Source of the DNA: an uncultured Verrucomicrobiae bacterium | Lineage (GTDB): Bacteria > Verrucomicrobiota > Verrucomicrobiia > Chthoniobacterales > Chthoniobacteraceae | Direction: 5' to 3' | NCBI GenBank assembly: GCA_963769025.1 | Contig: CAVYKI010000010.1 | Location: 384,001 to 448,000 of the forward strand | Length of the DNA: 64,000 nt | Program-made: the position numbers and the translations under genes | Notes under the pieces: generated by a model | Told to the model about the DNA's origin: nothing | Databases searched by the model: none | What the model saw: the letters and a program-made list of their open reading frames with translations, nothing else | In this document: one piece after another, positions 3,692 to 64,000 of the stretch | Layout of the letters: each line of letters starts with the position of its first letter | Position numbering within the stretch: position 1 is the first letter of the stretch

Positions 3692-3865
3692 TCAGGCTTC
3701 GGTGTGACGCGCGAAATGCACCTCGACGCCCTTCGGCATGAGACGCTTGCGGCCACGCTGCCGGCGACGGGCGAGAATGGCGCGGCCATTCTTCGTGGTC
3801 ATCCGTTTGCGGAAGCCGAATTGCTGTTTGCGAGTGCGCTTGGATGCCTGATAGGTGCGTTTCAT
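3692..3865 (-). CDS. rpmH: 50S ribosomal protein L34 (57 aa, not in the ORF track)
   Basis: Manual translation [42 protein letters not shown]...; upstream of rnpA. Confidence 0.97.
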
Positions 3866-3955
3866 GGTTGGAAAGTGTTGTCAAAAAGAGCGCGCAGCTT
3901 AGCGGGCAACCCTCCCCTGTCAACCCATCGGAGCGAATTCCCGAAAATACCGCAC

Positions 3956-4711
3956 CTACTCGACGCCGACGGTTTCCTTCGCCCCGGCGACGGCGTATTC
4001 GCGGTTGAGCTTCGCGATGACGGTCGCGGGGATTTCCGCGGGGCAGACGGCTTCGCACTCGTAGTAGTTCGAGCAGTTGCCGAAGCCTTCCTTGTCCATC
4101 TGCGCGACCATCGCGAGCACGCGGCGCTTCCGCTCGGGCTGGCCTTGCGGCAGCTCGGCGAGGTGCGTGACTTTTGCGCCGACGAAAAGCATCGCGCTGC
4201 CGTTCGGGCACGCGCCGACGCATGCGCCGCAGCCGATGCACGCGGCGGCCTCCATGGCGAGGTCGGCGTTCTGTTTCGGCACGAGGATCGTGTTGCCATC
4301 CGGCGCGCTGCCGGCGCGCGCGGTGATGAAGCCGCCGGCCTGCTGGATGCGGTCGAATGATGCGCGGTCCACGCAGAGGTCGCGGATGACCGGAAACGGC
4401 TTCGCGCGGAACGGCTCGATGTAAATCGTGTCCCCGTCCTTGAACTTCCGCATGTAGAGCTGGCAGGTCGTCGTCTCGCTCGGGCCGTGCGGGATGCCGT
4501 CGATGGTCAGCGAGCAGGTGCCGCAGATGCCTTCGCGGCAGTCGTGGTCGAATGCGATCGGCTCGTCGCCCTTGCGCGTGAGTTCGTCGTTCACGATGTC
4601 GAGCATCTCGAGGAATGAGGCCTCGGGCGGAATGCCGTTCGCGGCGATGTCCACGAGCCGGCCTTCGCTCTTGCTGTTCTTCTGGCGCCAGACTTTGAGT
4701 TTCAGGTTCAT
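3956..4711 (-). CDS. sdhB: Succinate dehydrogenase/fumarate reductase Fe-S subunit
   Basis: '[10 protein letters not shown]', '[12 protein letters not shown]', '[12 protein letters not shown]'; start at MNLKLKVW. Confidence 0.95.
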
Positions 4712-8915: not shown

Positions 8916-9515
8916 TTACGGCGTCGGCGGCGTCGGCGGCTCCTCTTCCGGGTCGCCGGCCACGCCGGGGAAGCGCTGTTTCAATTCGTCATACACGGTG
9001 TCCGCGCCGGCCACGTCGCGGCGCGCGGCCTGCCGCACGGTCTGGTAAAAGGATAGATCCGCCAGCCAGATCTCGCTGCCCACCAGCAGCAGCGAGTCGT
9101 CGAGCTGTTCGCAGAGCTTCTTCACTTCGCGGAAGATGTCGGCCAGCACCACGCGCAGGGCGCGGTCCTTGGTCACCTCGGCCGGGTCCACGAAGGGCGG
9201 CACGAGGTTCGGCGCGCTGGCCATGTAGCTCGCGCACTGTTCATCGAAGAGGAGCGACGCCGCGCCCAGCTTCGGGAGCTGGATGCGCTCGTCCTTGGTC
9301 AGGTTGATGAGGAACGGCAGCAGCGCCTTGATCTCGGTGAGCTTGGTCAGGATGGCGGTCCTGTTCGCCGCCGTCACTTCGGTGGAAATGCGATTGTCAT
9401 TAGGCATGGGTGGGTGGGGTTGTGGGTTGTCGGGCGCCATGCCATCCCACGTGAGCCCCGGCGCGTCCCATGTCAGGGCGGCGTCCGGGGAATCCCATGT
9501 GAGCGGCTGTGGCAC
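8916..9515 (-). CDS. Hypothetical helical protein; alternative start at MPNDNRIS (9407); upstream in-frame extension with three LTWD motifs
   Basis: Strong GC3 bias and protein-like composition; no recognised domain. Confidence 0.7.
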   Translation of the reverse strand: MPQPLTWDSPDAALTWDAPGLTWDGMAPDNPQPHPPMPNDNRISTEVTAANRTAILTKLTEIKALLPFLINLTKDERIQLPKLGAASLLFDEQCASYMASAPNLVPPFVDPAEVTKDRALRVVLADIFREVKKLCEQLDDSLLLVGSEIWLADLSFYQTVRQAARRDVAGADTVYDELKQRFPGVAGDPEEEPPTPPTP

Positions 9516-9773
9516 GGGCGGACATTAGCCGCCCACATTTCCGCGCCTCCAAGGAACAAGTGTTCTTCGCGGGAGGCACCGCGGCTGCTGGCGGGCGGAT
9601 GTTGAGAGTTGAGCGTTGGGAGAAAGCGGCGAGACCATGGCCCTTCGTAGCCGCCGACGGCAGGAGGCGGGCACTTTGAAGACCGGAGAGCGGAACGACG
9701 TTCTTCGGCTGAATCTTCCTTTCCGGGTTCCGATTTCCGCTCTCAGGATCAGCCCGTCTCCTTCCGTCGTCGG

Positions 9774-10049
9774 CTACGGGGACGCTCCACACCGGTCCCT
9801 CCGCTCCGCCCGCGCATAGATCCGCGACGGCACCGTCTCCAGCGCGTGCGCCACGCGCGGGAGGGATTCGTTGTTGATGATCCGCCGCCCCATCTCCCAA
9901 TGCTCCACGGCCTTCGGGTCCACGCCCGCCCGCGCCGCCAGTTCCTCCCGGTCCATGCGCTTCTCCTCCCGCATCTCCGCGATCACCGGCCCCAATTGCC
10001 TGCCCAGCGGCTCCGGCACGCTGGGATTCAATGCCCGTCTCTTCTCCAT
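9774..10049 (-). CDS. XRE-family helix-turn-helix regulator
   Basis: 'IAEMREEKRMDREELAARAGVDPKAVEHWEMGRR' HTH_3 pattern. Confidence 0.8.
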   Translation of the reverse strand: MEKRRALNPSVPEPLGRQLGPVIAEMREEKRMDREELAARAGVDPKAVEHWEMGRRIINNESLPRVAHALETVPSRIYARAERRDRCGASP

Positions 10050-37398: not shown

Positions 37399-37533
37399 CT
37401 ACTTGAGCGGATCCTTTTTGCTGCAACCGCAGCCGCCCTTGCCGGCCTTTTTCGAGCGCGCGCGCAGCACGAGATACACCACCGCGCCGAGCACCGCCGC
37501 GACGACGAGGATCTGCTGGACGGTCTCGTTCAC
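37399..37533 (-). CDS. FeoB-associated Cys-rich small membrane protein
   Basis: 44 aa, one TM plus 'GGCGC'; GTG start overlaps the feoB stop. Confidence 0.75.
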   Translation of the reverse strand: MNETVQQILVVAAVLGAVVYLVLRARSKKAGKGGCGCSKKDPLK

Positions 37534-39614
37534 TGGAAGCCGAGCAGCCGCCCGCCCTGGTAAACGACAAACGCGCCGACCCACGCGAGCACGGTCATGT
37601 AAGCGATTTGGAACAGCGGCCAGCGCCACGAGTTCGTCTCGCGCCGCACGATGGCGACGGTGCTGATGCACTGCATCGCGAGGACGTAGAAGACCATGAT
37701 CGAAAGGCACACGAGCGGCGTGAAGACGGGCGTCCCGTCGGCACGGCGCTCGGCGCGCATCTGGCTGCGGAGATCCTCATTCTCCTCATCGGCGTCCTCG
37801 ATGTTGTAAATCTGGCCCATGGTGCTCACGAAAACTTCGCGCGCGGCGAACGAGGCGACAAGGCCGATGCCGATTTTCCAATCGTAGCCCAGCGGCGCGA
37901 TGACCGGCTCGATCGCGTGCCCCATCCGCCCGCCGATGCTGTGCGCGAGGGACTCGGACGGCGTGGGATCCGGCGTCGTGGGCTTCGGATAGCTGAGCAG
38001 CGCCCAGAGGATGACGCTGAGGGCGAGGATGACCGTGCCCGCCCGGCGGAGGAACAGCACCGCACGCTCCCACATCCGCTGCACGATGCCGCGCAACACG
38101 GGCGCGCGGTAAGGCGGCAGTTCGAGCAGCAGCATGGGCGTCTCGCTGCGCAGGATCGTCTTTTTGAAAAGGCCCGCCATGACGAACGCGGCGAGGATGC
38201 CGATCAGATACATGCACAGCATCACCCCCGCCTTGCTCCACACTCCCTGCGCGGGCATGAGCAGCGAAATCATGATCGCATACACCGGGAGCCGCGCGGA
38301 GCAGCTCATCAGCGGCGCGACGAGGATGGTGACGAAGCGGTCGTTGCGGTTCTCGATCGTGCGCGTCGCCATGATGCCTGGAATCGCGCACGCGAACGAA
38401 CTCAGCAGCGGGACAAACGATTTCCCGTGCAGGCCCACGCGCGACATCATGCGGTCCATGATGAACGCGGCGCGCGCCATGTAGCCGCTGTCCTCCAGCA
38501 GCCCGAGGAAGAAAAAGAGGATCAGGATTTGCGGGAGAAATATGACGACATTGCCCACGCCGCCGATCACGCCGTCCACGACAAGGCTCTGCAGATCGCC
38601 GGGCGGAAGGTGCGCGCCTGTCCATTTTGCGAGCGCCTCCATCCCGGCGCTGATCCACTCCATCGGCGCCTGCGCGACGACGAAGATGCACACGAACATC
38701 AGCACCATCATCCCGATGAACGCGATCCAGCCCCACAGCTTGTGCGTGAGGATCTGGTCCATGTGGTCGCTGAACGTCAGCCCGTGCGAATCCTCCCCGC
38801 GACGGTGCACGACGGAAGCGCACACTTCCGACACCCACGCGTAGCGCGCATCCACCGGCGCGGCGATCGGGTCCAGCCCGCTGAGCCGCAGCCGCTCGCG
38901 CGCGGCATGGATCTCCGCGAGCAGCGCGGCATTCCCTTTCACCTCCGCGCCAAGGCGTTCGTCTTCGAGCGAAAGGAGCAGCATCGCCTCCGGGCGCGTG
39001 CTTCCCGCGTGGCAATCGATGATGCGCGACAGCGCGGCGACCTCGCGTTCGAGCACGATGGGGAGCTGCGCCTTGCGGTCGGAAACGTGGAGCGTGGGAC
39101 GGGAGAGCGCCTGCTTGAGCTCGATGAGCCCCTGCCCGCGGCTCGCGACCATCGGGATCACCGGCACGCCCAGGCTGTCGCGCAACGCGAGCAGATCGAT
39201 CGACAGCCCGCGCTTTTCCGCGACGTCCACCATGTTCAGCGCGACGATGACGGGGATGTCCAGTTCGAGAAATTGCGCGACGAGGTAGAGATGCCGGTCG
39301 AGGTTCGACGCATCGAGCACCGCGATGATCGCATCCGGCCGCGGCGTCCCGGGCACGCGGCCCAGCAGCAAATCGCGCGACACCGCCTCGTCCGGCGAAC
39401 GCACCTGCAGGCTGTAGCTGCCCGGCAGATCGAGCAGTTCCATCGCCTCGCCGTGGCTGCCAAAAAATCGCCCCGTCTTTTTTTCCACCGTCACGCCGGG
39501 ATAGTTCCCCACTTTCTGACGCAGGCCCGTGAGGGCGTTGAAAATCGTGCTCTTCCCCGTGTTCGGATTTCCGGCGATGGCGATGCGTCGGAAGAGTTTT
39601 GGAAGGTCACCCAT
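37530..39614 (-). CDS. feoB: Ferrous iron transporter FeoB
   Basis: 'GNPNTGKS', 'VGNYPGVTVE', 'DLPG', 'EDSGYMARAA', 'MSCSARLP'. Confidence 0.97.
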   Translation of the reverse strand: MGDLPKLFRRIAIAGNPNTGKSTIFNALTGLRQKVGNYPGVTVEKKTGRFFGSHGEAMELLDLPGSYSLQVRSPDEAVSRDLLLGRVPGTPRPDAIIAVLDASNLDRHLYLVAQFLELDIPVIVALNMVDVAEKRGLSIDLLALRDSLGVPVIPMVASRGQGLIELKQALSRPTLHVSDRKAQLPIVLEREVAALSRIIDCHAGSTRPEAMLLLSLEDERLGAEVKGNAALLAEIHAARERLRLSGLDPIAAPVDARYAWVSEVCASVVHRRGEDSHGLTFSDHMDQILTHKLWGWIAFIGMMVLMFVCIFVVAQAPMEWISAGMEALAKWTGAHLPPGDLQSLVVDGVIGGVGNVVIFLPQILILFFFLGLLEDSGYMARAAFIMDRMMSRVGLHGKSFVPLLSSFACAIPGIMATRTIENRNDRFVTILVAPLMSCSARLPVYAIMISLLMPAQGVWSKAGVMLCMYLIGILAAFVMAGLFKKTILRSETPMLLLELPPYRAPVLRGIVQRMWERAVLFLRRAGTVILALSVILWALLSYPKPTTPDPTPSESLAHSIGGRMGHAIEPVIAPLGYDWKIGIGLVASFAAREVFVSTMGQIYNIEDADEENEDLRSQMRAERRADGTPVFTPLVCLSIMVFYVLAMQCISTVAIVRRETNSWRWPLFQIAYMTVLAWVGAFVVYQGGRLLGFQ

Positions 39615-39617
39615 GGC

Positions 39618-39884
39618 TCAGATTCGTTGCACGCGGATGCCCGCGGCTTCCGCCTTGCGCAGCGAAATGTGCGCGCCGCGGACCTTGAATTCCATCGGGT
39701 CGCCCAGCGGCGCAAAACGCACGACCTCGACCACCGTCCCGACCGTGAAGCCCATTTCCATCACCCGGCCGCGCATCGATCCGGGCACTTCCACGGCGAG
39801 CACCTTCGCGCGCTGTCCCGGTTGGAGCGCACTGAGAGGTTCCGCCTCGCTCCGGGGCTCCGCTGTCTCCGCGTTGTCACTCAT
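39618..39884 (-). CDS. feoA: FeoA
   Basis: 'RVMEMGF..G', 'APLGDP', 'SLRK.EA'. Confidence 0.92.
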   Translation of the reverse strand: MSDNAETAEPRSEAEPLSALQPGQRAKVLAVEVPGSMRGRVMEMGFTVGTVVEVVRFAPLGDPMEFKVRGAHISLRKAEAAGIRVQRI

Positions 39885-39890
39885 GGCGGC

Positions 39891-40133
39891 TCAGACTGCG
39901 AACCGCTCCACTTCCACGTGGTCGCAAAGTTCACGGCCCAGCGCCAGGCGCGTCCCCATCAGCAGGCAGATCACCGCAGCGCCGTCCGCGATTTTCCGCA
40001 CCACCACGTGGTCGCGGAAGCCCAGTTCACGCAGCCGAACGCAGTGCGGACAGTCCGGGCAGATGTGCCGGACACGCAACTGCTCGCCGCATTTTGCGGT
40101 CGCGAGCGTCAGTTTCGGAGTGGGGAAAAGCAT
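39891..40133 (-). CDS. Second FeoA-family protein with a CPDCPHC segment
   Basis: 'RLRELGF', 'GTRLALGRE'; start at MLFPTPK. Confidence 0.75.
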   Translation of the reverse strand: MLFPTPKLTLATAKCGEQLRVRHICPDCPHCVRLRELGFRDHVVVRKIADGAAVICLLMGTRLALGRELCDHVEVERFAV

Positions 40134-40157
40134 CGGTGTATTTCTTACTACAGTGCC

Positions 40158-40199
40158 TGAGATTGGGTCGCAAGAACAATTGCGATTGAGTCGCAATTG
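40158..40199. promoter_or_regulatory. Putative metal-regulator (Fur-family-like) operator, perfect site plus a weaker tandem copy
   Basis: CAATTGCGA-N5-TCGCAATTG (40177-40199) and TGAGATTGGGTCGCAA (40158-40173), just upstream of feo. Confidence 0.7.
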
Positions 40200-40302
40200 G
40201 CCTCGCGGACAGGTGAAATACCCGCCCGGAGGCACCGGATTAGGCGGTTTGTCCGCAATTTTTCCGATGTCGCACGCGCGGGAGCCGGACCACTGCCCGC
40301 AG

Positions 40303-41507
40303 TCAGCGGGAAGTACGGACTAGGCGCGCTTTGGGTGCCTGTGGGCGTCGGGAGGCAGTGAGCCACGGATGCGCGAGCGCGCCGGATGCGGACGCGCGTG
40401 CGGAAGCTTCCACCGCCAGCAGCGACGCGAGAAAATCCGCAGCGACGTCGGCTTCCGTTTTCGGGAGCTTGGAGAGGCGGCGGACAAACGGCTGCAGCGA
40501 CGTGCGACGGATCGCGGGGCGGAAACGGAGCGCGCCGTCTTGCTCGAAATAGGCGGAGCGGTAGAGGGCCGCGTCGATCATCGCGGGCGGCAGCGGCCCG
40601 CGCAGCCGGGTGATTTCGAGGAGGTGTTCGTAGTTCAGGGTGAGGTCGAGCAGATCGTCCGCGCCGCGGACCTCGCGCCATTTCTCCTCGTGGATGTTCT
40701 TCTCCCCTTCGATCTCGGACGAACCGGGCAGGCTGTTCGCATAACCCCAGAGCGTGGCGTAGGTGCCGTCGAGCGCTGTGTCGTTCAACTGCCGAGCCTG
40801 CCACACGGTGCCGTAGCGTCCGCTGCCGAGGACCTTTTCGAGCGCGTACTTTCCGGCGATGATCGTGCCAGGCTTGAATTGCTCGGCCTTTTCAACGGTC
40901 TCGTCCGCCTTCACGCTTTCGGCGAGCGGGAGTTCGATGGCTTCCTTGCCCGTGCTGAACTCGCGGTACTTTTTCGCCGCGGCTTTGCGCGGGCTGAAGA
41001 GGCGGCGGCCGGTGAGCATTTCAAAGACGGTGCAGCCGAGGCTCCACAGGTCCACGGCTGTGCTCAGCGGTGCGCCGATGATCAGTTCCGGCGCCATGTA
41101 TTCGCGCGTGCCGAAGGTGGAGCCCTGCTTGAAGCGGTTGTCGGCGCTGCCGAGGTCGGCGAGGCGCGCGGTGCCGGTGCGGGCGTCGTAGAGGATATTG
41201 TCGGGCTTGATGTCCGTGTGCGCGTAGCCGCAGCGGTGCAGGCGCTCGGTGGCGCGCAGGAGTTCGCGGGTCACGCGCTTCACGCGGGCGAGCGGCAGCG
41301 GCTCCGCGATCGAGCGCGTCGTCGAGGCTGCGCCCGTGCTTTTCGTAGGCCATGCACACGTGGCCGTCGTGGAGGAATGCCTCGTGCAGTGCCGATGATG
41401 TCCGGGCACTCGCCGAGTTCGCGGCGGAGGAGCTTGTGCAGCGACACCTCGAAGACAGCCCCCTTGCTGTAGCGGCGGCGCTGGATTTTGAGCGCGATTT
41501 TCTCCAC
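40303..41507 (-). CDS. SRPK-like Ser/Thr protein kinase with displaced glycine-rich loop (two +1 indels near 41392 and 41303)
   Basis: 'IALK', 'HTDIKPDN', 'ADLG', 'TREYMAPE', 'DLWSLGC..FEMLTG..LF.P', 'EHLLEI...GPLP', 'ADFL..LL', 'HPWL'. Confidence 0.88.
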
Positions 41508-41513
41508 GGCGAA

Positions 41514-42857
41514 TCAGTTGTCCGTGTTGTTCACGAATGCGCGGCGGATTTCGTAGAGCACGCGGCCGATGAGCCGGATGTCCTCGGTGATGATGCTCGC
41601 CTCGCCGGTCATGTCCTGTTTGAATTGCAGCCGCTTTTTGAAGCTCGTGACGAGCGGATACGGGATGTCCACGAGCACGAGGTTCGCCCCGTCGCGCGCG
41701 ACCATGGAGACGGACTGCACGCGGCCGGTCACGAGGCCGAATTCACGGTACGGGAAGTCGGCAAAGCGGATGCGGACCTTCTGGCCTGGCTTGATTTTTC
41801 CCGCGCCGCCCTGGTTCACCGACATGCGGCCGATGAGGCGCGAGGTCTCGGGCACGATGAGGAACACCTGGCGCCCGGCGGTCACGAACTGCTGGTCGCT
41901 CCAAAAATCGTAGAAGGCGACCACGCCGTCCGCGGGCGCGCGCAGGACGTAGTCCGCCTCCCACACGTCGATTTCGCCGCGGAGCTTGTTGAGGCTCACG
42001 CGCAGCTTTTCGCGCGCGAGCGTGAGCGCCTCGTGGCGGTCGTGCTCGATGTTGCGGAGTTCGCGCTCCATGCGCGACGCCTCGATCTCGGCATCGGTGA
42101 GATTCTTTTGCATGAGCCCGTCGCCGCGCATCTGGGAAAGCACGGCCATTTCCTGCTCCTGCAATTGCGCGGTGCTGATCGAGTCGCGGCGGTGCAGCAC
42201 TTTCAGCCGGTCGTATTTTTCCTGCGCGAGTTCGAGTTCGCGCCGGGTCATCTGCTGTTGCGCGCGCATGGCGGTGATCTGGCTCTGCTTGCCGGTGAGT
42301 TGCTGGCGCAGGAGGTCGCCGGCCTTCTGCGCGTAAGTGTCGGCGAACACGGTGCGGAACTGGTTGTACGCCCCGAGGAATTCCGCGTAGCCGTCCTGGA
42401 GGCGTCCGAGGCCCTCCTCGGGTTTGAATTCGATGTCGAATGTCGCAGCGTCGCCCGCGACGGCCGGTGCGAGACGCGCGAGCTTTTCCTTCAGCGCGAG
42501 AGCGACGGCTGCCTGCGAGGGGCTTTGGATCACCGCGAGGATGTCGCCCTTTTTCACCTTCTGCTTCTCGCTGGCCTGCAGGCTTTCGAGGTGTCCGCTT
42601 TGGCGCGCGACGACTTCCACGACGGGCTGCGTGCCGGTCACGCTGAGGCGCGCGGTGATCGTGTCGGGATACTTGATGATGACCGAAAGGATGAGCAGCA
42701 GCGTGAGGACCGCGGCGAGCATCGTGGTGCCGGATTGCAGCAGCCAGTGCGGCGGGCGGCCCATGAATTCGCGCACATCCGCGTTCATGAGCGCGAGCGG
42801 CTGCGGCGGCGGGATCACCGTGAGCGTGCGCTGGGGTTGAGGTTCGTCAGCCGGCAT
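41514..42857 (-). CDS. HlyD-family membrane fusion protein
   Basis: 'EFMGRPPHWLLQSG' + TM, 'VKKGDILA', coiled coil, 'LRAPADG', 'FPYREFG'. Confidence 0.92.
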   Translation of the reverse strand: MPADEPQPQRTLTVIPPPQPLALMNADVREFMGRPPHWLLQSGTTMLAAVLTLLLILSVIIKYPDTITARLSVTGTQPVVEVVARQSGHLESLQASEKQKVKKGDILAVIQSPSQAAVALALKEKLARLAPAVAGDAATFDIEFKPEEGLGRLQDGYAEFLGAYNQFRTVFADTYAQKAGDLLRQQLTGKQSQITAMRAQQQMTRRELELAQEKYDRLKVLHRRDSISTAQLQEQEMAVLSQMRGDGLMQKNLTDAEIEASRMERELRNIEHDRHEALTLAREKLRVSLNKLRGEIDVWEADYVLRAPADGVVAFYDFWSDQQFVTAGRQVFLIVPETSRLIGRMSVNQGGAGKIKPGQKVRIRFADFPYREFGLVTGRVQSVSMVARDGANLVLVDIPYPLVTSFKKRLQFKQDMTGEASIITEDIRLIGRVLYEIRRAFVNNTDN

Positions 42858-45079
42858 GGGTCGACGAAACCTCCAGTTCGAGTTGGTTGCGCACGAGCCG
42901 GTAGTACGCGCCGGCCTTCGAGACGAGATCGCCGTGCTGCCCGGTCTCCACGATGCGGCCCTGATCGATGACGACGATCTGGTCCGCGTCGCGCACGGTG
43001 CTGAGGCGGTGCGCGATGACGACGACCGTGCGGCCCTGCGCAAATTCACGGAGCGCCGCGATCACCGCGCTCTCGTTCTTCGTGTCGAGAGCGCTCGTGG
43101 CTTCGTCGAGGAAAAGGAAATCGGGATTGCGGTAGATCGCGCGCGCGAGCAGCAGGCGCTGGCGTTCGCCGCCGGAGAGTCCCTGCCCTTCCGCGCCGAC
43201 GACCGTCTCCGCGCCATTCGGCTGGTTGCGCACAAATTCCTCCATGCTCGCGAGCCGGATCGCCGCGCCCATGCGCATCGGATCGATCGTCTGGCTGCCC
43301 GGCACGACGTTCCTCGCAAACGTCCCGGAAAAAATGAATCCGTCCTGCATCACCACGCCGCAGCGCGCGCGCCACGCGTGTCCGTCGAGCGCACCGAGCG
43401 GCACATTGTCCACGTATATTTCGCCGCCGGTGGGGCGGTACAGGCCGAGCAGAAGTTTCAGCAGCGTCGTCTTGCCGCTGCCGCTCGCGCCGACGATCGC
43501 CGTCACTTTTCCCTGCGGGATGACGAGGTTGATGTCCTTCAGCACATCCGCGCGTCCGGCGCCGGGATAGCGGAAGCTGAGGCCGGAGATCGGTGAGCTT
43601 TCGCGACTCGGGAAAGTCGGACGTCGCGTGCGTTTCGTCCTCGTCCTCGTCCTTGTGGTCGTAGATTTCCTGCATCCGCTCGAGGCTCAGCCGCGCGTCC
43701 TGCGCGCTGTAGATGAATTCGATGATGCGGCCGATCGGCGAGTTGAGCTGTCCGACGATGTACTGCGTCGCGATCATCATGCCGAAGGTCATCTCGCCCT
43801 GCAGGACCGCGCGCGCGGCGAGGAATGAGATGAGGATGTTGCGGATGTTGGAAAGGACGGTGACTCCGAGGCGCTGCGTCTGCTTGAGCGCGAGGCTCTT
43901 TGCTTCGAGCTGGTAGTTGCGCATCGCGATGTGCTCCCAGTCCCACCGCTTGTCGCGCTGCAGGCCCTGGATTTTGATCTCGGGCATGCCGGCGACGATT
44001 TCCATCAGCGTGTCGCGCTCCTTCGCCTCGAGGACGAAGCGCTTGAAGTCGAGCATCCGGCGTTGCTTGAGAAAAATGAGGAGCCAGCCGACGGCGAGTG
44101 CCGAGAGGATCACGAAGGTGCGAGGATTTGCCAGCTGTAGAGTGCGAGCACCATCGCGAAGACGACGAACGTGAGCAGCGAGAAGACCACGTCGAGCGAG
44201 GACGACATCAGGAAGTCCTTCACGCGCCGGTGATCGCCGATGCGCTGCATGATGTCGCCGGCGGTGCGGCTGTCGAAGAACGGGCAGCGGGAGCCGCAGC
44301 AGCTTGCTCAGAAAATCCGCGATCATCGCGATGCTCACGCGCGAGCCGATGTGCAGGAGCAGCCAGCTCCGGATCATGTCCGCGGCGGTCTGGCTGAGCG
44401 CGAGCATCAGTTGCGCGGCGAGCAGGAGGTAGATGAAATGCAGATCGAGATTCCCGATGCCGTAGTCCACGACCGCCTGCGAGAGGAAGGGCAGGATCAG
44501 CTCCAACCCGAGACCGACGAACATCCCGACTCCGACTTGCAGGAGGAGTTTTTTGTAAGGCCGGAGGTAGTTGAAAAAGAACGCAAGCCCCTTGCGGCCG
44601 CGCTCCGCATCCTTGCGGCCCGAGGCGCTCTGCTCATGGAACGCGGGGGTGGTTTCCAGCAGCAGGTAGATTCCCGGCGCGTCGGCGGAAATGGGGGTTC
44701 CCGGCGGCGAACTCGCGCGGATGAATTCCTCCGGCGAATAGTCCACAAGGCCGTGCGCCGGGTCCGCGACGCGCACCTTGTTCCGCGTGAACTCATACAC
44801 CACGACGAAGTGATCCGCCTGCCAGTGTGCGATGCACGGCAGCGGCGCCTCGTCGCGCAGACGCATGTAGCTGAGGCGCACGGCGAGCGAGCGCAGGCCG
44901 ACTTTCTCCGCCGCCTCGGAAATGCCGAGCAGCGACACGCCGCCCTTGCCGATGTGGCAGAGTTCGCGCAGCCATCCCTGCGAAAATTCACGGCCGTGAT
45001 GCGTGCAGATCATCCGCAGCGCCGCGGGGCCGCAGTCCATGGCGTCGAGCTGCGGGTGGAACGGGAAACGTTTCTTCAT
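42847..45079 (-). CDS. Peptidase C39-containing ABC transporter (PCAT), frameshifted
   Basis: 'QLDAMDCGPAAL', 'HFVV', 'VADPA'; TM domain; 'GASGSGKTT', 'LSGGERQR', 'LDEATSALD'. Confidence 0.95.
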
Positions 45080-45094
45080 GCCCGTGCGCGCGGC

Positions 45095-46700
45095 CTAAAA
45101 GGAAAGATTGTGGCGCTGGGCGATGGTGCCATCGAGCTGGCCGAGCGTGGACCATGCGCCGAGGATGGCGAGGCGGGCTTCGAGCACGCGCATCTCGGAG
45201 GTGCGGAGATCCTCCTCGGCCTCCCGAAGCAGGCGCACGGGCACCGAGCCCTTCGCGATGCTGGAGGAGCTGCTCCTGCCACTTTTCCATGCTCGCCTTT
45301 TGCGAATGCCGCGCGGCGGCGAGCTGCTGCCGGCCGAACGCGATGGCACGGCAAAGTTCGCTGATGCGCTGACGCAGCCGCTGCTCGGCCTGCTCGCGGA
45401 GGACCTCGCTGCGCGCGAGTTCGGCCCGCGCGGTTTCGAGTTGCGCGCGTTCGGCGCGGAAAGTCCACGGCAGCGAAATCCGGGCGAGGGCGACACCTTC
45501 CCAGCCCCTGCCGCCGCTGCCGTCGGAGCCCGTCTTGTTCGACGCGCCGGAAAACTCCACCTCCAGCTTGGGCAGCATGTTGTTGCGCGCGCGACGGAGT
45601 TCCACTTCGCGGCGCTCGATTTCGTTGATGAGCAGCACGGCGATCGGCGCGTTTTCGAGCGCGCGCTGGATCGAGACGGCCGGGTTCGGATCGGCGGCAG
45701 GCATCGAGGCTTCGCGGATCGGTTCAAAGACCAGCCTCGATGCTGACACTCCCTGCGGTGCGCCGATCGCAAACCACAGTTCGTCCACGCGGTCGGACAC
45801 CAATTTGGTCGCGGACAGCCAGCGCTCCTGCGCGGTGGAGACGAGGACTTCCGCCTCCAGCACGTCGAGCTTCGATGCGGCACCCGCGGCCTGCCGTGCC
45901 TTTGCATCCTCGAGCACCGACTGCGCGCGGCGCAGGCTCGCGAGGAAATTTTTCTCGCTCAGCGCCGCGACCGCCGCGGCGAAATAGCCGGATTCGGCCG
46001 CACGGAGCATTTCGAGGATCTCCGCATTGCGCGTGGCCTCGGCCTGGTCGCGCAGCAGTTCGGCGATGCGGATGCCTGCGCGGTTCACACGCGGGTCGAG
46101 GCCGCGCAGCAGTTGCTGGCGCACCGTCAGCGTGTATTCCGAAGTCGTGCTGTTGACGTAGTCGTTGCGGAAATCGCCGGTGCTCGTCGCCACCTGCCCG
46201 GCTTGAAAGTCCACCTCGGTTCCCGTCACGAACCTTTTCGACACGCCGCCGCTCCCTGCGGCCTGCGACCATGTCCGGCCCTCGGGCGTGTCCGTCCGGA
46301 CCGTGCCGGTGAAGTTCGGATCGAATTGCGCCTTCGCAGTCTCGATGCCCGCTTTCGCGGTGCGTGCGGCGAAAGATGCGTCGCGGATCCGGAAGTTGCG
46401 CTGGATCCCGTAAAGCACGCAGTCGTCGAGCGTGAGCCGTCCGCTGGAGGCGATGTGCACCTCGGCAGGCGCGGCGCTCGGCAGACTGACCCGCGCGGGA
46501 GCGGGCGTCTGTTTCGCAATCGGGCGCGGCGCGGCGGTCCCGATGGCGCGTCCGTCCTCAGCTCCGGGCGCGATGGAAAATGCGCCGAAAAGGATCACCG
46601 CGATCGTCGCGGCGAGCGGCACCCCGGAGCCGCGGCGGCGCGGGCGGGGCTGCACACGTGGCGTGCTGGGCGTGCTCGGGCGGAAGTCAGAAGGTGTCAT
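45095..46700 (-). CDS. TolC-family outer membrane efflux protein (frameshift near 45250)
   Basis: 'LTLDDC....QRN', 'AQFDP', 'QQLLRG', 'SKLDVLEAE', 'LPKLEV'; start uncertain. Confidence 0.88.
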
Positions 46701-46760
46701 CCAGTCGAAAGGCGATCGTGCAGTGCGGAATGCAGCATTGGGAGAGCAGGATACCAGCCT

Positions 46761-46803
46761 AGAAAAAGAAAAAGCAGGAAGGCACAAAGTCCTTCCTGCT
46801 TTT
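46761..46803 (-). terminator. Intrinsic terminator between the precursor gene and tolC
   Basis: Minus strand AAAAGCAGGAAGG-actttgtg-CCTTCCTGCTTTT followed by TCTTTTT. Confidence 0.8.
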
Positions 46804-46876: not shown

Positions 46877-47092
46877 CTACCAACCGCAGGGCTTCGGAGC
46901 GCAGCCGCGGCGGGACTTGCTGCCGGACTTCTTGCTCTTGGAGCCGCACTTCACCTTGGATTTCTTGCTCTTGCTCTTCTTGCACTTCACGGTCTTCACT
47001 TTCGTGACCTTGCAGCCGCCGCCGCCGGTGACAACTGCGGGTGCGTTGATTGCGTCGGACGCGAACTGGTCGAGGATGCTGATCTTCTTCAT
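46877..47092 (-). CDS. Double-glycine-leader precursor peptide with Lys/Ser/Cys-rich core (candidate RiPP/PCAT substrate)
   Basis: 71 aa; leader ...AINAPAVVTGG; GC3-biased codons; A/C-rich 5' leader; heads the TolC-PCAT-HlyD cluster. Confidence 0.85.
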   Translation of the reverse strand: MKKISILDQFASDAINAPAVVTGGGGCKVTKVKTVKCKKSKSKKSKVKCGSKSKKSGSKSRRGCAPKPCGW

Positions 47093-47570: not shown

Positions 47571-48215
47571 ATGCCTATCCACGAAACAAACCGCAACCCT
47601 TCCTCCGGGCCACTCCGCTGGTCAGAGCGAGCGACAGTCCCAGTCTGCCCGGACGCGGAATCCAAACCGCTCCGCCGTTCCCGCCGGGCATTCACCCTCG
47701 TTGAAACCTTGGTTGCGGCGACGGTGGTCATCATCGCGCTCGGCGCGATCTTTATGGTGAGCAGCCGATGCATGGGGATCGTCCGCTCCTCGCAGAGCGT
47801 GGGCGTCGCCTCGGCCATTTTGCAGGAGCGCATGCAGCAGTTGCAGGCCACGGATTGGGAAACGCTGACTGACAGCGATTCCTACACGGATCAGGTGTGG
47901 ACCGATCCGGAGGATGGGACGACGGAAAATGTCGCCGGCCTCCTCAAGAGCGCGACCCTTTCGGCGGGCGCGTTCCAATTGCAAAACGCCGTGGAAACGA
48001 TCCGCGTGTCGGCATACCGGCCAGTCGCGGTCGCCGCCGCGGAACCGGCAGCGATCGTTGCGAGCCGGACGGCCACCACGCCGACTCTCACATCCGCGAC
48101 GACAAATCTCGGGGATGAGAAAATGGTCCGCATCGATGTCCGGCTCACGTGGACCGAAGGCAAGGCAGGCCTCCAGCGCTCACTCGGATTATCGGCCATC
48201 GTGGCCCGCAGATAG
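47571..48215 (+). CDS. Prepilin-type N-methylation domain protein
   Basis: 'RRAFTLVETLVA' plus hydrophobic helix; true start may be later. Confidence 0.82.
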   Translation: MPIHETNRNPSSGPLRWSERATVPVCPDAESKPLRRSRRAFTLVETLVAATVVIIALGAIFMVSSRCMGIVRSSQSVGVASAILQERMQQLQATDWETLTDSDSYTDQVWTDPEDGTTENVAGLLKSATLSAGAFQLQNAVETIRVSAYRPVAVAAAEPAAIVASRTATTPTLTSATTNLGDEKMVRIDVRLTWTEGKAGLQRSLGLSAIVARR

Positions 48216-48224
48216 GACGCTCCT

Positions 48225-48842
48225 ATGAAAACACCACTCCCACGCCTCCGCCGCAAAGCCGGTTTCACGCTCGTCGAGATGCTGATCGGCGCCACAGCGG
48301 CCTCGATCTTCCTCGGAGGACTGATGACCGGGAGCATCGCGCTCCAACGCTCGCTTTCCGCGAACGATCAGCTCGCCCGCGCCCAATCGGATATCCTCCG
48401 CGTGTCCGATTACATGACGCGGGACATCCGCAACGCGACAACCATCAACACGGCGGCGACGGGCTCAGTGCTCCTCACGGTGACGACCGGGGACTATTAC
48501 AACCGGAACGGCACTCCGAACAACCCCGCGGACGACGTTCCCAATTCCCCCGTCCTCGGGCGCACCACGGCGAGCTACGGAGCCAGCCCCGTGAGCATCC
48601 GCTACCTGAAGAGCGGGACGCGCATCGCCCGCGAAGTCACCCGGATCGACGCCGGTGTCTCCACCACGACCACGACTTGGATCGCCGACAATGTGGACAC
48701 TCTCAGCGTGGCTGCGGATGCGAATGGCAACATCACATTCACGTCGGCGACTGCCATGAACTACCGCGTCCGGAAGGCAGGATTCGAAGTCCCCTCGCTC
48801 TCCTTCGTGATGTCTTCAAAACCCCGAAACTCAACACCGTAA
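48225..48842 (+). CDS. Prepilin-type protein (PilW/GspJ-like)
   Basis: 'KAGFTLVEML', 'YMTRDIRNA'. Confidence 0.85.
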   Translation: MKTPLPRLRRKAGFTLVEMLIGATAASIFLGGLMTGSIALQRSLSANDQLARAQSDILRVSDYMTRDIRNATTINTAATGSVLLTVTTGDYYNRNGTPNNPADDVPNSPVLGRTTASYGASPVSIRYLKSGTRIAREVTRIDAGVSTTTTTWIADNVDTLSVAADANGNITFTSATAMNYRVRKAGFEVPSLSFVMSSKPRNSTP

Positions 48843-48847
48843 ATACC

Positions 48848-50584
48848 ATGCTCCTGTTCCCGAAAAAATCCAAGTCCACGGAAGGCGCCGTGCTCGTCGC
48901 CTCCATCCTCACCGTCGCAGTCCTGGCATCGATTTCCGCCGGCGTCCTGCTCACCGTCGGGGCCAAGCACCACGACAGCTACCACGCGGCAGGCTGGCGG
49001 GAAGCACTCACCGCCGCCGAATCCGGAGTCGAGCGGACCATGGCCGAGCTGCGCACCGCCATCGACGATCCAGCCAACGCATGGACCGGCTGGGTGGTCG
49101 TCGATTCGGCAGGGAAAACGGCGGCGTTACAGCAGATCAATCGCACTGGCCGCTGGCCGGCCGGCTACACCCTGCGCATGAACGCCACGCTGCCTCCGCA
49201 GGCCGGTGAGAGCCGGCAGACCCAGTACGCTGTGCTGGTCGATGTCCCCTCCACGCTGGCCACGACATCGAGGCGGTGGAACCAGTCGTATCGCATCCGC
49301 TCCACCGGCGTCACGGCGGTGCCCGGGGCGGCGATCGCCGCGGTGGACAAGCGCGACACACAGTTGCGGCGCCTGAGCCTCTTCATGGACCGGACGGTGG
49401 GCTTTCCCGGCAGCGGCTCGCAGCTCGCGAGGCCGCAGGCGACCAGGACCATCGAGGTCATCGCCAAGCCCGAGAGCGTTTACAAATACGGGGTGACTGC
49501 GGAGATCAACTTCAAGCTGAACAAGAAGACCATCATCGACGGCTATAATTCCAACTACCCGGAGAGTTCGACCAACGGCAAATACGATCCGACGAAACGG
49601 ACGGCAAACGGCGGCACGATCCTGGCCAACCGCTGGAAGAAGAAGCCGAAGCCGGATCAGGCGGCTGAAAAATTCGATGTCGGCAAGGCCACGATCTATG
49701 GCGACCTGATGGTCAAGGGCAGCATGAAGAACGTGAAGAATTTCGAGAACGTGCAGGGCAACAAGCTCACCAACGTGAGCATCGACACGCCGACGAACGT
49801 CGCGCCGGTGTGGACCTCGGTGACGGCAAACATCGCCACGTTGGACGGCAAAATCCCCGATGCACTGAAGGCGACCTACAAGACCGCAGAAAAGAATGCC
49901 AAGGCGGGCGGCCCGGTCGCCCAATTCGAGGCCAAGAGTGCCACGGCGGCGGCCGAACTGGCTGCCAAGGGGATGGAACTGCCCGGCGGCGCCGACCCTT
50001 CCAACCCGACGCGCTACAAAGTCGAGAAGATCGGCGTGGACAAGAAGACGGAATCGCTCGTCCTGAGCAATCCGCCCGGAGTGTCCGAAAGCTGGATTGA
50101 AATCTGGGTGACGGAGGAGATGAAGATCGAAAAGGGCGGCACGATGTTTGTCTCCAATGGCGTCCACGCGACGATTTACCTCGAAGGCAAGAAGGTCGAA
50201 ATCAAGGACACCAAGGCGGACAAGGGGGGCTTCATCATCGAAAGCGGCTTCGCCGGAGACCTGCAACTCATCGGCATCGAGGCAAAGGAAGACACCAAGA
50301 AGGAAACCGACGACGAGTATTCGCCGAAAAAGCGCAGCGGCAAGATCTCGATCTCCGATGCCGACTTCACCGGCGTGATCAATGCCCCGGACTGGGACGT
50401 GGACTTCAAGCCGAAGGACTGGGACAAGGATGACACCATCTACGGTGCCCAACTCTATGGCTCGGTCCTGGGACGCAAGGTCAAGATCGGCAACGGTGCG
50501 GACTACCACTACGACGCGGCGGTCACGGAGATCGGCAGCGTCACGATGTATTCGACCGCCGGCTGGAACGAGCTCGAGCGGTAG
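48848..50584 (+). CDS. PilX/GspK-like protein with large Lys-rich C-terminal beta domain
   Basis: 'EGAVLV' (no Glu5), 'ALTAAESGVE', 'YRIRSTG', 'FTGVINAP', 'HYD', terminal 'WNE'. Confidence 0.75.
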   Translation: MLLFPKKSKSTEGAVLVASILTVAVLASISAGVLLTVGAKHHDSYHAAGWREALTAAESGVERTMAELRTAIDDPANAWTGWVVVDSAGKTAALQQINRTGRWPAGYTLRMNATLPPQAGESRQTQYAVLVDVPSTLATTSRRWNQSYRIRSTGVTAVPGAAIAAVDKRDTQLRRLSLFMDRTVGFPGSGSQLARPQATRTIEVIAKPESVYKYGVTAEINFKLNKKTIIDGYNSNYPESSTNGKYDPTKRTANGGTILANRWKKKPKPDQAAEKFDVGKATIYGDLMVKGSMKNVKNFENVQGNKLTNVSIDTPTNVAPVWTSVTANIATLDGKIPDALKATYKTAEKNAKAGGPVAQFEAKSATAAAELAAKGMELPGGADPSNPTRYKVEKIGVDKKTESLVLSNPPGVSESWIEIWVTEEMKIEKGGTMFVSNGVHATIYLEGKKVEIKDTKADKGGFIIESGFAGDLQLIGIEAKEDTKKETDDEYSPKKRSGKISISDADFTGVINAPDWDVDFKPKDWDKDDTIYGAQLYGSVLGRKVKIGNGADYHYDAAVTEIGSVTMYSTAGWNELER

Positions 50585-57256: not shown

Positions 57257-59202
<1,946 letters not shown>

Positions 59203-61868: not shown

Positions 61869-64000
61869 TCACAGCGCCTTCCCTTTCACGACGATCGAAT
61901 CGCTCAGCCCGAAACGCTCCGGGTGATACATCTCCTCGATCTTCGCCGGCGGCGCGGTCGCGCTGCCGCTGGCGCGCACGCGGGCGAGGTAGCGGATCTG
62001 GTGTTTTCCCGGCCACATCGTGTTCTTGAAGAACAGCGCCCGGTCATCGCGCAGCTCGTTGAAGTCCGACGCCCACGCGTTCGACAGCCCCTGCCCCGCC
62101 ATCGCCTGCGTCTTGAATTCCGGATTCACCGCCTCGAACACCGCCGGCAGCGGGTCATCAATCGCCACGTAGCTCGCCCGCGCCGGCGCGACAAAATCGA
62201 GCGTCACGAGCACGCGGTCGCCGACCTTCGGGTCGCCGAGATCGGACAGCGAGCCGTCGTCGTTGATGCGCTGATACCGCCGCGTGATCGTGTAGCCGCG
62301 ATCCTTGCGCTCCGTCACGAGCGTCTTCGGCCGCGCCTCGATTTTCACGTTCGTGAAAATGCGGCCCTTGCCCGGATTCCGCAGCTTCAGCGACGCCGCG
62401 GCGTCGAAAGGAAACTCCTTCTCGAAAAACGCACCCTTCGCCGGGAGCCGGAAGTCCGCGCCGTCGCGCGATCGTGCCTTTCACCTCCTTGCGATCCGTC
62501 TCCGTGCGCCGGACGTATTCGGCCACGCCGAGCATCGCCCACGCGTTGCCCTGCGTCGTCATCCAGCGCGCCGCCGGTGCGCGCATCGAAGACCGCCGTC
62601 GCGATCGCATCCGCCGCGCCCGATTTCGGCGCGAGCTTCGACCACGCGAGCAGCCGCACGCCTTGCGCGCGGGCGACGGAGCCGAACCAAAAATCCTCCT
62701 CCACGGCCTTGTCCTGCATCTTCAGCAGCGTGTCTGCCATCTTCGCGGGCCCTTGCCCTCGAGGATCGCGAGCGCGAGCAGCGCGCGGTTTTCCTGCGTG
62801 AGCACGTCGCGCTTCTTGAAAAGCGTCTCATGATACGCCGCCTCCGGCCGCCCCGCGAGCGCGAGCGTGTAGCACGCGAGCGAACGCGGCGAGAGCTCCC
62901 ATTTGTCGTTCGCATCCGCCGCGCCGCGCAGCGCCTTGCTCAGGTAGTCGAGCACGCGCTTGAGATTGTCCTCATCGACTTCGAAGCCCGCCTTCTTCGC
63001 CATCACGAGCCCGAGTCCGCCGTAGGCCGTCGACCAGAATTCCGAGCGATGACCGCCCGGCCAGTAGGCGAGCCCGCCGTCCGACGTCTGCATGGCAATA
63101 GATGCGCGACACGCCCTTTTCGATCGCCGCCTGGAATTCCTCGTCCGTCCGATTCAGCTCCGGCAGCATCGTGCGAAAATCGCGCAGCGCCAGCCACGGC
63201 AGCATCGACGACGTCGTCTGCTCGAGGCAGCCGTACGGGTAGTGCAGCAGCTCGCCGACGCTCTCGCGCAGCTCGAAGATGCGCGAATTCGAAATGCTCA
63301 CGCGCACCATCCCGCGCCCCTGCAGCAGCGCCGGGTCCACGCCCGCGAGCAGATTCGTCTCCGCCGCATCCACGCGCTGCTGGCGAATCTCGCGCAGGCA
63401 GCGGCGTGGGGAAAGTGACCTTCAGCCTCGTCTCCACCGCATCGCGGAACTTCGCACCCCGCCGCGCTGAAGTCCGCGCTCCAAATCCACTTCGCCTCGC
63501 CCACGTCCACGATCTCCACGGGGAAATCCACCGCAATCGAGCTCTTCGCCGGGATGCGTCACCGTGCGTTCAGTCTCCGCCGCGCTCGCGGTCGCATCGA
63601 GCTGGATGCCCACCTTCACCTCGCCGGCCTGCGCCGTCGTGTTGTGCACGACCGCGCGGAGCACGAGCTTGTCGCCGACATTTGCAAAGCGCGGCGTCGC
63701 GGGCTCCAGCATCACCGGCTTGTTGATTTCGAAAGCGCCCTCCGCGTTGCCGAACTGATCGCGCTTCGTCTGCACCACGGCCATCAGCCGGTAGCGCGTG
63801 AGGCCGTCGGGCACCTTGAAGCTCGCGCGCACCTTGCCCTCGACGTCGCTGCGCAGCGACGCGGCCCAATACGCCGTGCCGAGGAAATTCCGCCGCACGC
63901 CGGCCTCGCCGCCCTTGCCGAATCCGCCGATGAGGTAGCCCTTGTTCTCGAACAGCCCCTCGGCAATCGCATCGGGCCCTTCCTTCAGCAGCTTCTCGAT
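61869..64000 (-). CDS. Bacterial alpha-2-macroglobulin, C-terminal part, frameshifted
   Basis: 'RRNF..TAYW', 'PDGLTRYR', thioester 'YPYGCLEQTTS', 'TTQGNAW', 'DDPLPA..E', 'EEMY.PE'. Confidence 0.93.

Follow-up and report, generated by a model that had tools for sequence, protein, structure and literature searches.

The 64,000-nucleotide stretch analysed here (the window; positions 384,001 to 448,000 of contig CAVYKI010000010.1, assembly GCA_963769025.1, from an uncultured Verrucomicrobiae bacterium) contains, at 40303..41507 on the reverse strand, a gene for an SRPK-like protein kinase in which the glycine-rich loop (Gly-loop) of subdomain I lies behind the catalytic lysine instead of in front of it. 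The kinase is the last gene of an operon on the same strand that reads, in order, precursor peptide, TolC-like protein, C39-ABC exporter, HlyD-like adaptor and kinase. Its GTG start codon (41507-41505) follows the TGA stop of the HlyD-like open reading frame (ORF; 41514-41516) after only six bases, TTC GCC, and the protein opens directly at the beta3 'VAxK' strand carrying the catalytic lysine (M-E-K-I-A-L-K-I-Q-R-R-R-Y, 41466..41507), leaving no room for beta1 and beta2. A preliminary description of this DNA had drawn attention to that abrupt beginning, and the coordinates bear it out.

In the assembly the gene occupies three frames owing to two single-base insertions. The frame from 41513 encodes the N-lobe, VEKIALKIQRRRY...ECPDIIG; the first frameshift site (41390..41392, reverse strand), with one surplus base relative to relatives, falls between 'DIIG' and 'LHEAF', and the frame from 41512 encodes the piece LHEAFLHDGHVCMAYEKHGRSLDDALDRG. 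After the second site (41303..41309, reverse strand, again one surplus base), between 'LDRG' and 'PLPLARV', the frame from 41511 reads 'PLPLARVKRV...HTDIKPDN...DLG...HPWL' and runs to the stop at 40303. The order within this third frame is HTDIKPDN, ADLG, GTREYMAPE, 'EMLTGRRLFSP', a long insert and then NYEHLLEITRLRGPLP...DFLASLL...HPWL. The insert, of about 110 residues (40642..40980, reverse strand), lies between alphaF and the alphaG-type helices and is absent from SRPK structures. Within it, in a single open frame after 'EMLTGRRLFSP' and before NYEHLLEITRLRGPLP, sits a complete subdomain I, GTIIAGKYALEKVLGSGRYGTVWQAR (40792..40869, reverse strand), a conserved beta1 - GxGxxGxV - beta2 hairpin that forms two strands in both of the models described below. 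It falls inside the 40785-40878 interval first assigned to it, about 220 residues past the start of beta3 and between alphaF and the alphaG-alphaI block. The Pfam Pkinase match to the window kinase is limited to profile positions 95-216 of 263 (E 9.6e-34), and intact relatives of 378-435 residues match the window kinase end to end, the relative P0003 being 87% identical to it.

The displaced Gly-loop is a family trait and not a peculiarity of the window gene. A protein search with the in-frame part of the kinase gave 401 matches at E <= 0.001 among 8000 scored candidates; the best 120 of these are nearly all 378-435 residues long, and in 116 of the 119 listed relatives (the window's own entry excluded) the protein opens with the VAxK strand at residue 2-26, the other three being N-terminally cut fragments. 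A profile search covering 1.84 billion cluster representatives brought in about 22 more divergent members, arranged in the same way, and the N-terminal extensions of divergent members, which reach 38 residues, contain no Gly-loop. The motif G-x-G-x-x-[GSA]-x-[VILA] precedes VAxK in not one of 133 full-length members; ahead of V-A-x-K there are 3 residues at the median, and at least 20 in nine members. Inside the insert the picture is reversed. Counted over 160 non-identical family sequences in P0003 numbering, the strict internal motif G-x-G-x-x-[GSA]-x-[VIL] is present in 154, with the canonical spacing L-G-x-G-x-[FY]-[GSA]-x-V; G227 and W235 are invariant, G229 is kept in 159, and V234, L226 and A237 are each kept in 155, while the third glycine position holds Gly in 88 sequences, Ser in 44 and Ala in 28. 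Conservation of this motif is far beyond chance. The catalytic residues are equally constant, K7, E20 (alphaC), H96, D98, K100, N103, D117, P139, E140, D152 and W154 being present in all 160 sequences. The Leu and Val of the internal motif, together with the Ala in VAxK, are taken to line the adenine pocket in the N-lobe (L49, V57 and A70 of PKA), so that two of these three would be carried on the transposed piece.

The same segment order is found in intact single-frame genes among the listed proteins, in the 22 family loci taken from species-representative genomes and in 5 of 80 relatives' genomes. These five carriers comprise 4 of 29 genomes of the same genus and 5 of 48 of the same family, with none among 32 genomes from other families of the order, and a sample of 400 further genomes from the phylum, with only four candidates scored in each, contained no match at E <= 1e-60. 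The preliminary description had named in advance two observations that would speak against relocation, a normal N-terminal Gly-loop in homologues and an unconserved internal motif; aligned homologues share the same order family-wide and display neither. One member, P0122 (716 residues), carries an extra N-terminal kinase-like domain of about 330 residues, and its permuted kinase begins at residue 336 with ...F-A-L-K.

The likeness to SRPKs was also stated at the outset, and it holds in sequence and in structure. Sky1p is the top hit of a phmmer search against all PDB sequences (E 2.5e-33), followed by SRPK2 (3.2e-24) and SRPK1 (about 4e-23) in the range 3e-24 to 5e-23, and below the SRPKs come DYRK, HIPK, CLK and PRP4 (DYRK3 7e-23, CLK2 5e-21). 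HMMER aligns three stretches to Sky1p: query 218-244 to Sky1p 19-45, the N-terminal Gly-loop, with 12 of 27 residues identical (A); query 44-174 to Sky1p 95-239 (B); and query 289-384 to Sky1p 244-339 (C). The internal segment is also aligned to SRPK2 26-52, again the N-terminal Gly-loop. Read from these alignments, the order B-A-C is a transposition of two neighbouring segments of the canonical A-B-C. The topology had been called permuted: the move of the Gly-loop into an insert of the C-lobe stands, and a circular permutation can be rejected, since the observed order is neither of the cyclic shifts B-C-A and C-A-B.

Foldseek and VIA-align both rank SRPK1/2 and Sky1p at the top, the former with E about 1e-17 and the latter with Z 30-31, root-mean-square deviations (rmsd) of 1.9-2.1 Å and 271-275 aligned residues; for SRPK1 (PDB: 1wak) the values are Z 30.5, rmsd 1.9 Å and 272 residues. 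DYRK1A, PRPF4B and a CLK lie within about one VIA Z unit of the SRPKs. The VIA alignments begin at chain residue 103 of SRPK1 and residue 181 of Sky1p, positions at beta3, and about 110 model residues remain unaligned, corresponding to the insert. The same extent follows from the 272 of about 384 ordered residues that align to SRPK1, and from the sequence alignment, in which query 174 maps to Sky1p chain residue 239 and query 289 to residue 244.

The closest sequences without the permutation belong to ordinary SRPK-type proteins, in which '...RY....LGWGHFSTVW...' precedes VAxK; non-family matches, where their source is named, are eukaryotic SRSF protein kinases, and when an alignment of distant members served as the query of a second protein search, most matches were eukaryotic SRPKs and only two were family members. 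Of the features that mark an SRPK, the family has the HTDIKPEN non-RD loop and DLG and lacks the N-terminal beta1-Gly-loop-beta2 hairpin. Leu follows the Asp of DFG/DLG in 145 of the 160 sequences, Phe in 11, Met in 3 and Pro in 1; a distant clade (L026-L029) retains DFG instead of DLG. A quick tree was built from 20 family kinases and 11 SRPK-type rows (8 from named eukaryotes, 3 unnamed); it left out members without a linked peptide, loci identical to P-numbered entries, and CLK, DYRK and Hanks kinases. In this tree the family forms one side of a branch with a Shimodaira-Hasegawa-like approximate likelihood ratio test (SH-aLRT) value of 100.

AlphaFold2 models were made for P0003, from a 115-row alignment, and for the distant member P0146, which is 27-37% identical to the other rows of its alignment (A5). 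The P0003 model has a mean predicted local distance difference test score (pLDDT) of 92.9 and a predicted template modelling score (pTM) of 0.89, with beta3 at residues 3-9, alphaC at 11-31, beta4 and beta5 at 40-55, and the internal hairpin as two strands, 220-228 and 232-239, in a block of pLDDT 95-97. The P0146 model scores 86.8 (pLDDT) and 0.86 (pTM), with 93-96 over the hairpin. Values of pTM this high describe one rigid body, which suggests that the insert is docked on the core and not loosely tethered to it. Together with the conservation of the motif and the intact catalytic residues, this model confidence makes it probable that the hairpin would dock beside beta3. In a complex prediction, run without controls, the isolated N-lobe of P0003 (residues 1-60) and the hairpin segment (206-247), both supplied with alignments, scored 0.29 against a mark of 0.32, which weighs neither for nor against such docking.

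A hairpin on long linkers might also complete the N-lobe of a second molecule in a domain-swapped dimer, as the preliminary description suggested, and the roughly 45 residues that separate it from the core on either side would permit such a swap. We consider this improbable: the models are compact and of high confidence as monomers, and the distance from the lysine strand to the hairpin hardly varies, at 219-225 residues in the 119 listed relatives, as fits linkers that are packed.

The two indels proposed for the window gene at the outset are seen directly when it is set against its nearest DNA relatives, L039 and L042 (85-87% identity): the window has exactly two extra single bases and is otherwise colinear. 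Contigs from three public runs, which represent related strains and not the source sample, leave out one letter at 41303 (runs X2, X3 and X6) and one at 41391/41392 (runs X2 and X3), and also lack one base at 43593, near which the gene for the C39-ABC exporter also changes frame. The best of the public sequencing runs contains 16% of the window's sampled words, and no RNA runs were listed. Elsewhere in the same 64 kb, dnaK (57260-59202, reverse strand) is divided between two overlapping ORFs in different frames, with HSP70 profile positions 1-272 in ORF 58180-59202 and 265-598 in ORF 57260-58516, and the alpha-2-macroglobulin gene (61872-64000) is also in pieces. The source genome comprises 13 contigs at 83% completeness. 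dnaK is presumably an essential gene. Because it and the alpha-2-macroglobulin gene are broken as well, the two kinase frameshifts are most likely assembly indel errors and not signs of operon decay. In L012, another long-contig genome with a family kinase, the ABC ATPase part matches in three frame pieces around 9123-9812.

These data bear on the view that the window gene is a decayed pseudogene or a misassembly and its odd order an artefact. Two frameshifts within 1.2 kb, and another in the adjoining ABC gene, are what such a view would lead one to expect; yet the split dnaK points to assembly errors, and the window copy is colinear with relatives whose intact, single-frame genes have the same order, which refutes an artefact as far as segment order is concerned. 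We hold this explanation to be highly improbable.

The genes upstream of the kinase, all on the reverse strand, encode an export machine. The HlyD-family periplasmic adaptor occupies 41514..43049 (ORF bounds, the true start probably being an ATG near 42860) and the C39-peptidase/ABC exporter of PCAT type 42847..45079. The C39 domain of the latter is recognised by PF03412 (E 4e-30) and has the motifs 'DAMDCGPA' and 'HFVVV', which we take to be the catalytic Cys and His motifs of the peptidase; among NCBIfam models the NHLP exporter TIGR03796 comes closest, scoring 431 bits where the cut-off is 853. The TolC-like outer-membrane efflux protein (PF02321) lies at 44988..46787, where these ORF bounds are uncertain at both ends and only residues 87-514 are covered by homologues. 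A terminator-like hairpin of 13 pairs with a T run (46770..46803) stands just past the precursor peptide gene (46877..47092), which encodes 71 residues with a leader ending in V-T-G-G, a Lys/Ser-rich repeat core and Cys near both ends.

This gene set recurs with the kinase. In the 22 genome loci a HlyD relative lies directly upstream of the kinase in 19 and an ABC exporter is present in 19, and the pattern is the same among the 20 metagenome loci. In nine loci both genes were picked up by crude gene calls, and there the HlyD stop either overlaps the kinase start or is at most 16 bases away; a HlyD-kinase read-through fusion was considered and rejected, as the frames and overlaps of the two genes vary among loci. 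Gene order varies (peptide-TolC-ABC-HlyD-kinase or HlyD-kinase-peptide-ABC) and the set stays together. Across the family loci compared, no conserved lyase, cyclase or phosphatase gene occurs in the cluster. The kinase itself reaches no NCBIfam cut-off, its matches to LanL and LanKC being weak and far below theirs.

Two groups of genes flank the operon. Directly downstream of the kinase (37530-40235, reverse strand) are two FeoA-like genes and feoB, whose proteins had no match in the other family loci in protein searches. Diverging from the peptide gene (47571-50584, forward strand) are genes for a protein with a prepilin-type N-methylation motif and for a large protein with a weak DUF7305 match below the cut-off, which look like pseudopilin-type genes.

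The leader of the window peptide ends in ...A-V-V-T-G-G and its core is rich in Lys-Ser repeats. Across loci the leader is conserved as '..S-I-L-D-Q-F-A-x-D-A-I-N-A-P-x-x-V-T-G-G', and a peptide of this kind is encoded in 18 of the 22 genome loci and 14 of the 20 metagenome loci (11 by motif scan, 3 by eye), that is in 32 of 42 family loci in addition to the window. Where the peptide is lacking, in ten loci, the ABC gene is in every case absent or truncated by the record end, and a motif scan of eight loci of unrelated kinases found it in none. Among the 80 relatives' genomes all five kinase carriers have the peptide, four of them on the same contig as the kinase. One more genome, 82% complete, has the peptide and TolC with no kinase match, and three weak matches with internal stops are regarded as chance. 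Related genomes are not independent samples, so this linkage is a co-occurrence and no test.

No Pfam or NCBIfam family model matches the peptide. Its cores fall into three kinds, Lys-Ser (such as S-K-S-G repeats flanked by ends rich in Cys and Pro), Arg-Thr (R-T-R-T-R-T runs, without Cys) and Arg-Ser, the last exemplified by locus L021 with R-S-R-S-R-S-R-S, an Arg run and then more R-S; the sole Pfam echo of the L021 core is the RS-rich fly Transformer family (E 0.03). All three kinds are alternating basic/hydroxyl dipeptides, the chemistry of RS domains. Core type tracks the kinase tree, with SH-aLRT 98 for the Arg-Thr clade and 93 for the Arg-Ser pair. The residue after DLG/DFG influences Ser/Thr preference in protein kinases. 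All 12 kinases with Ser cores have S, C or N there, and all 8 with Thr cores have D, T or E (loci L009-L058); the Thr group is a single clade, so this match counts as one evolutionary event and is merely suggestive. Locus L013 encodes two different precursors with a shared leader (3744-3965 and 4361-4582) between kinase and ABC gene. Cores at L051:2990-3200, L041:1-160 and L055:390-520 are less regular, being K-P/K-T/K-S mixes or short K/S-rich sequences ending in Cys, so the strictness of the repeat is uneven among loci.

The kinase might leave the peptide unmodified and instead regulate the exporter or another cell protein, or be exported itself. Lys-Ser cores are not known as classical SRPK substrates, which would suit such a role. 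On the other hand, the linkage of peptide and kinase is tight even for distant members (35% identity) and through changed gene orders, the chemistry of the core is always a basic/hydroxyl alternation whose type follows the kinase clade, and the kinase has neither a double-glycine leader nor a signal-like N-terminus when the N-termini of the listed relatives are compared. We regard a role away from the peptide as unlikely.

The joint reading that we favour, with a probability of roughly 0.68, is that this is an active cytoplasmic kinase of SRPK descent whose hairpin has been transposed and which phosphorylates the repeat peptide before export. A Ser/Thr kinase of the CMGC/SRPK branch would have had its beta1-Gly-loop-beta2 hairpin moved from the N-terminus into a structured insert, the linkers of which, about 45 residues each, would carry the hairpin up to the N-lobe; there it would pair with beta3 and close the ATP site, most likely within one chain. 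The resulting constitutively active non-RD kinase would bind the precursor in the cytoplasm and phosphorylate Ser/Thr of (Lys/Arg)-(Ser/Thr) repeats in the manner of an SRPK acting on an RS domain. The C39 domain would then cut after Gly-Gly and the ABC/HlyD/TolC assembly would export the product, on which the phosphate could be either a final decoration or a transient mask of a polycationic peptide. By analogy with SRPKs, the secreted repeat peptide is probably the kinase substrate.

Several points weigh against this reading. SRPK1 favours Arg over Lys, and the cores here are mostly Lys-Ser; the window gene may be a true pseudogene in the source strain. Taken alone, the HMMER stretch over the hairpin is weak, at 7 bits and an independent E of 24. 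The contact between beta2 and beta3 is a prediction put forward on the grounds given above, not one read from model coordinates. In mean-field direct coupling analysis (160 sequences, effective number 91) the couplings between hairpin and N-lobe are unenriched and at noise level throughout: the fraction of pairs above 0.6 is 0.012 for hairpin and N-lobe and 0.004-0.015 for other regions, and the top couplings are mostly noise. Finally, WNG1 of Toxoplasma is reported to be an active kinase without a Gly-loop (PMC6442604), so conservation of the catalytic residues cannot by itself force the hairpin into the ATP site.

The last three of these considerations, from the contact onwards, together with the presumed position of the insert at the substrate-docking region of SRPKs, are what would favour the view that the internal hairpin is a relic, or an autonomous insert domain that binds, for example, leader or substrate, in a kinase that works with an open N-lobe lacking a Gly-loop, like the WNG kinases, or is a mere scaffold. 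A relic should decay, yet the GxGxxGxV spacing and the flanking Leu and Val persist in 154-160 of 160 sequences, even where overall identity falls to about 27%, and each model forms one rigid body in which the hairpin reaches pLDDT 93-97. We judge this alternative rather unlikely and retain the transposed, working hairpin as the better account.

Protein kinases are regarded as having an invariable succession of beta1, Gly-loop, beta2 and beta3. If the favoured reading is correct, the N-lobe can be assembled out of sequence order with a hairpin supplied by a C-lobe insert, and this would be the first protein kinase known with an ATP site built from an out-of-order hairpin; its product would represent a new class of ribosomal phosphopeptide natural products. 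The family would offer a natural test case for kinase folding, for split-kinase engineering and for the origin of non-circular rearrangements, and its operon context makes the function of the kinase directly testable. The findings suggest that soil and freshwater Verrucomicrobiota have a kind of phosphorylated ribosomal peptide not described before and, by analogy, a bacterial use of the recognition logic of SRPKs and RS repeats.

Full-text literature searches, as far as the retrieved portions go, brought up neither a kinase with a displaced Gly-loop nor bacterial SRPK-like kinases nor peptides of this type. The terms 'permut', 'SRPK', 'CMGC' and 'Verrucomicrob' are absent from the text of a review of bacterial pseudokinases (PMC12599244) and from the main text of a preprint atlas of bacterial kinases (10.1101/2025.01.12.632604), the supplements of which may list such families. 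As far as these searches went, WNG1 is the nearest published oddity found. The WNG kinases resemble the present family in having a protein-kinase fold without a Gly-loop in its usual N-terminal place; they have no Gly-loop at all (PMC6442604), and the family keeps a canonical one elsewhere in the chain.

The kinase domains of class III/IV lanthipeptide synthetases and other RiPP kinases have a Ser/Thr kinase fold that acts on Ser/Thr of a precursor peptide (PMC10604976). The present system is like LanKC and LanL in combining a kinase fold with a ribosomal precursor, and in its weak, sub-threshold NCBIfam matches; it differs in having a stand-alone SRPK-like kinase, and phosphate would be an end product here and not a leaving group. 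A lanthipeptide pathway was accordingly rejected, given that the cluster has no conserved lyase or cyclase gene and that the Arg-Thr cores have no Cys. With double-glycine bacteriocin systems of the PCAT/NHLP type it shares the C39 Cys/His motifs, the ABC exporter, HlyD, TolC and the Gly-Gly leader; unlike the known PCAT systems, as far as searched, it has a protein kinase as its only tailoring gene and a peptide outside Pfam and NCBIfam.

The closest parallel remains that with the eukaryotic SRPKs. Sky1p, SRPK1 and SRPK2 share with the family HTDIKPxN, ADLG and the C-terminal '...DFL..L......R......L.HPWL' block in the alignments. In SRPKs a large spacer splits the kinase core between the catalytic loop and DLG; the family has no spacer, query 107-112 being continuous where the SRPK2 chain jumps from 175 to 226, and only 'NILYD.RTG.ARLADLG' occupies the site. 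The family further differs from SRPKs in carrying its hairpin behind alphaF, in its bacterial host, in the placement of its gene in an export operon, and in cores that are mostly Lys-Ser or Arg-Thr and not Arg-Ser. SRPKs phosphorylate SR/RS dipeptide repeats (PMC11809128), and the co-encoded peptide of basic/hydroxyl dipeptide repeats extends the likeness to the RS domain. We put at about even odds the full comparison, in which the operon would be a bacterial counterpart of the SRPK/RS-domain pair, with an N-lobe rewired by non-circular transposition and a multiply phosphorylated double-glycine-leader peptide exported by PCAT, HlyD and TolC.

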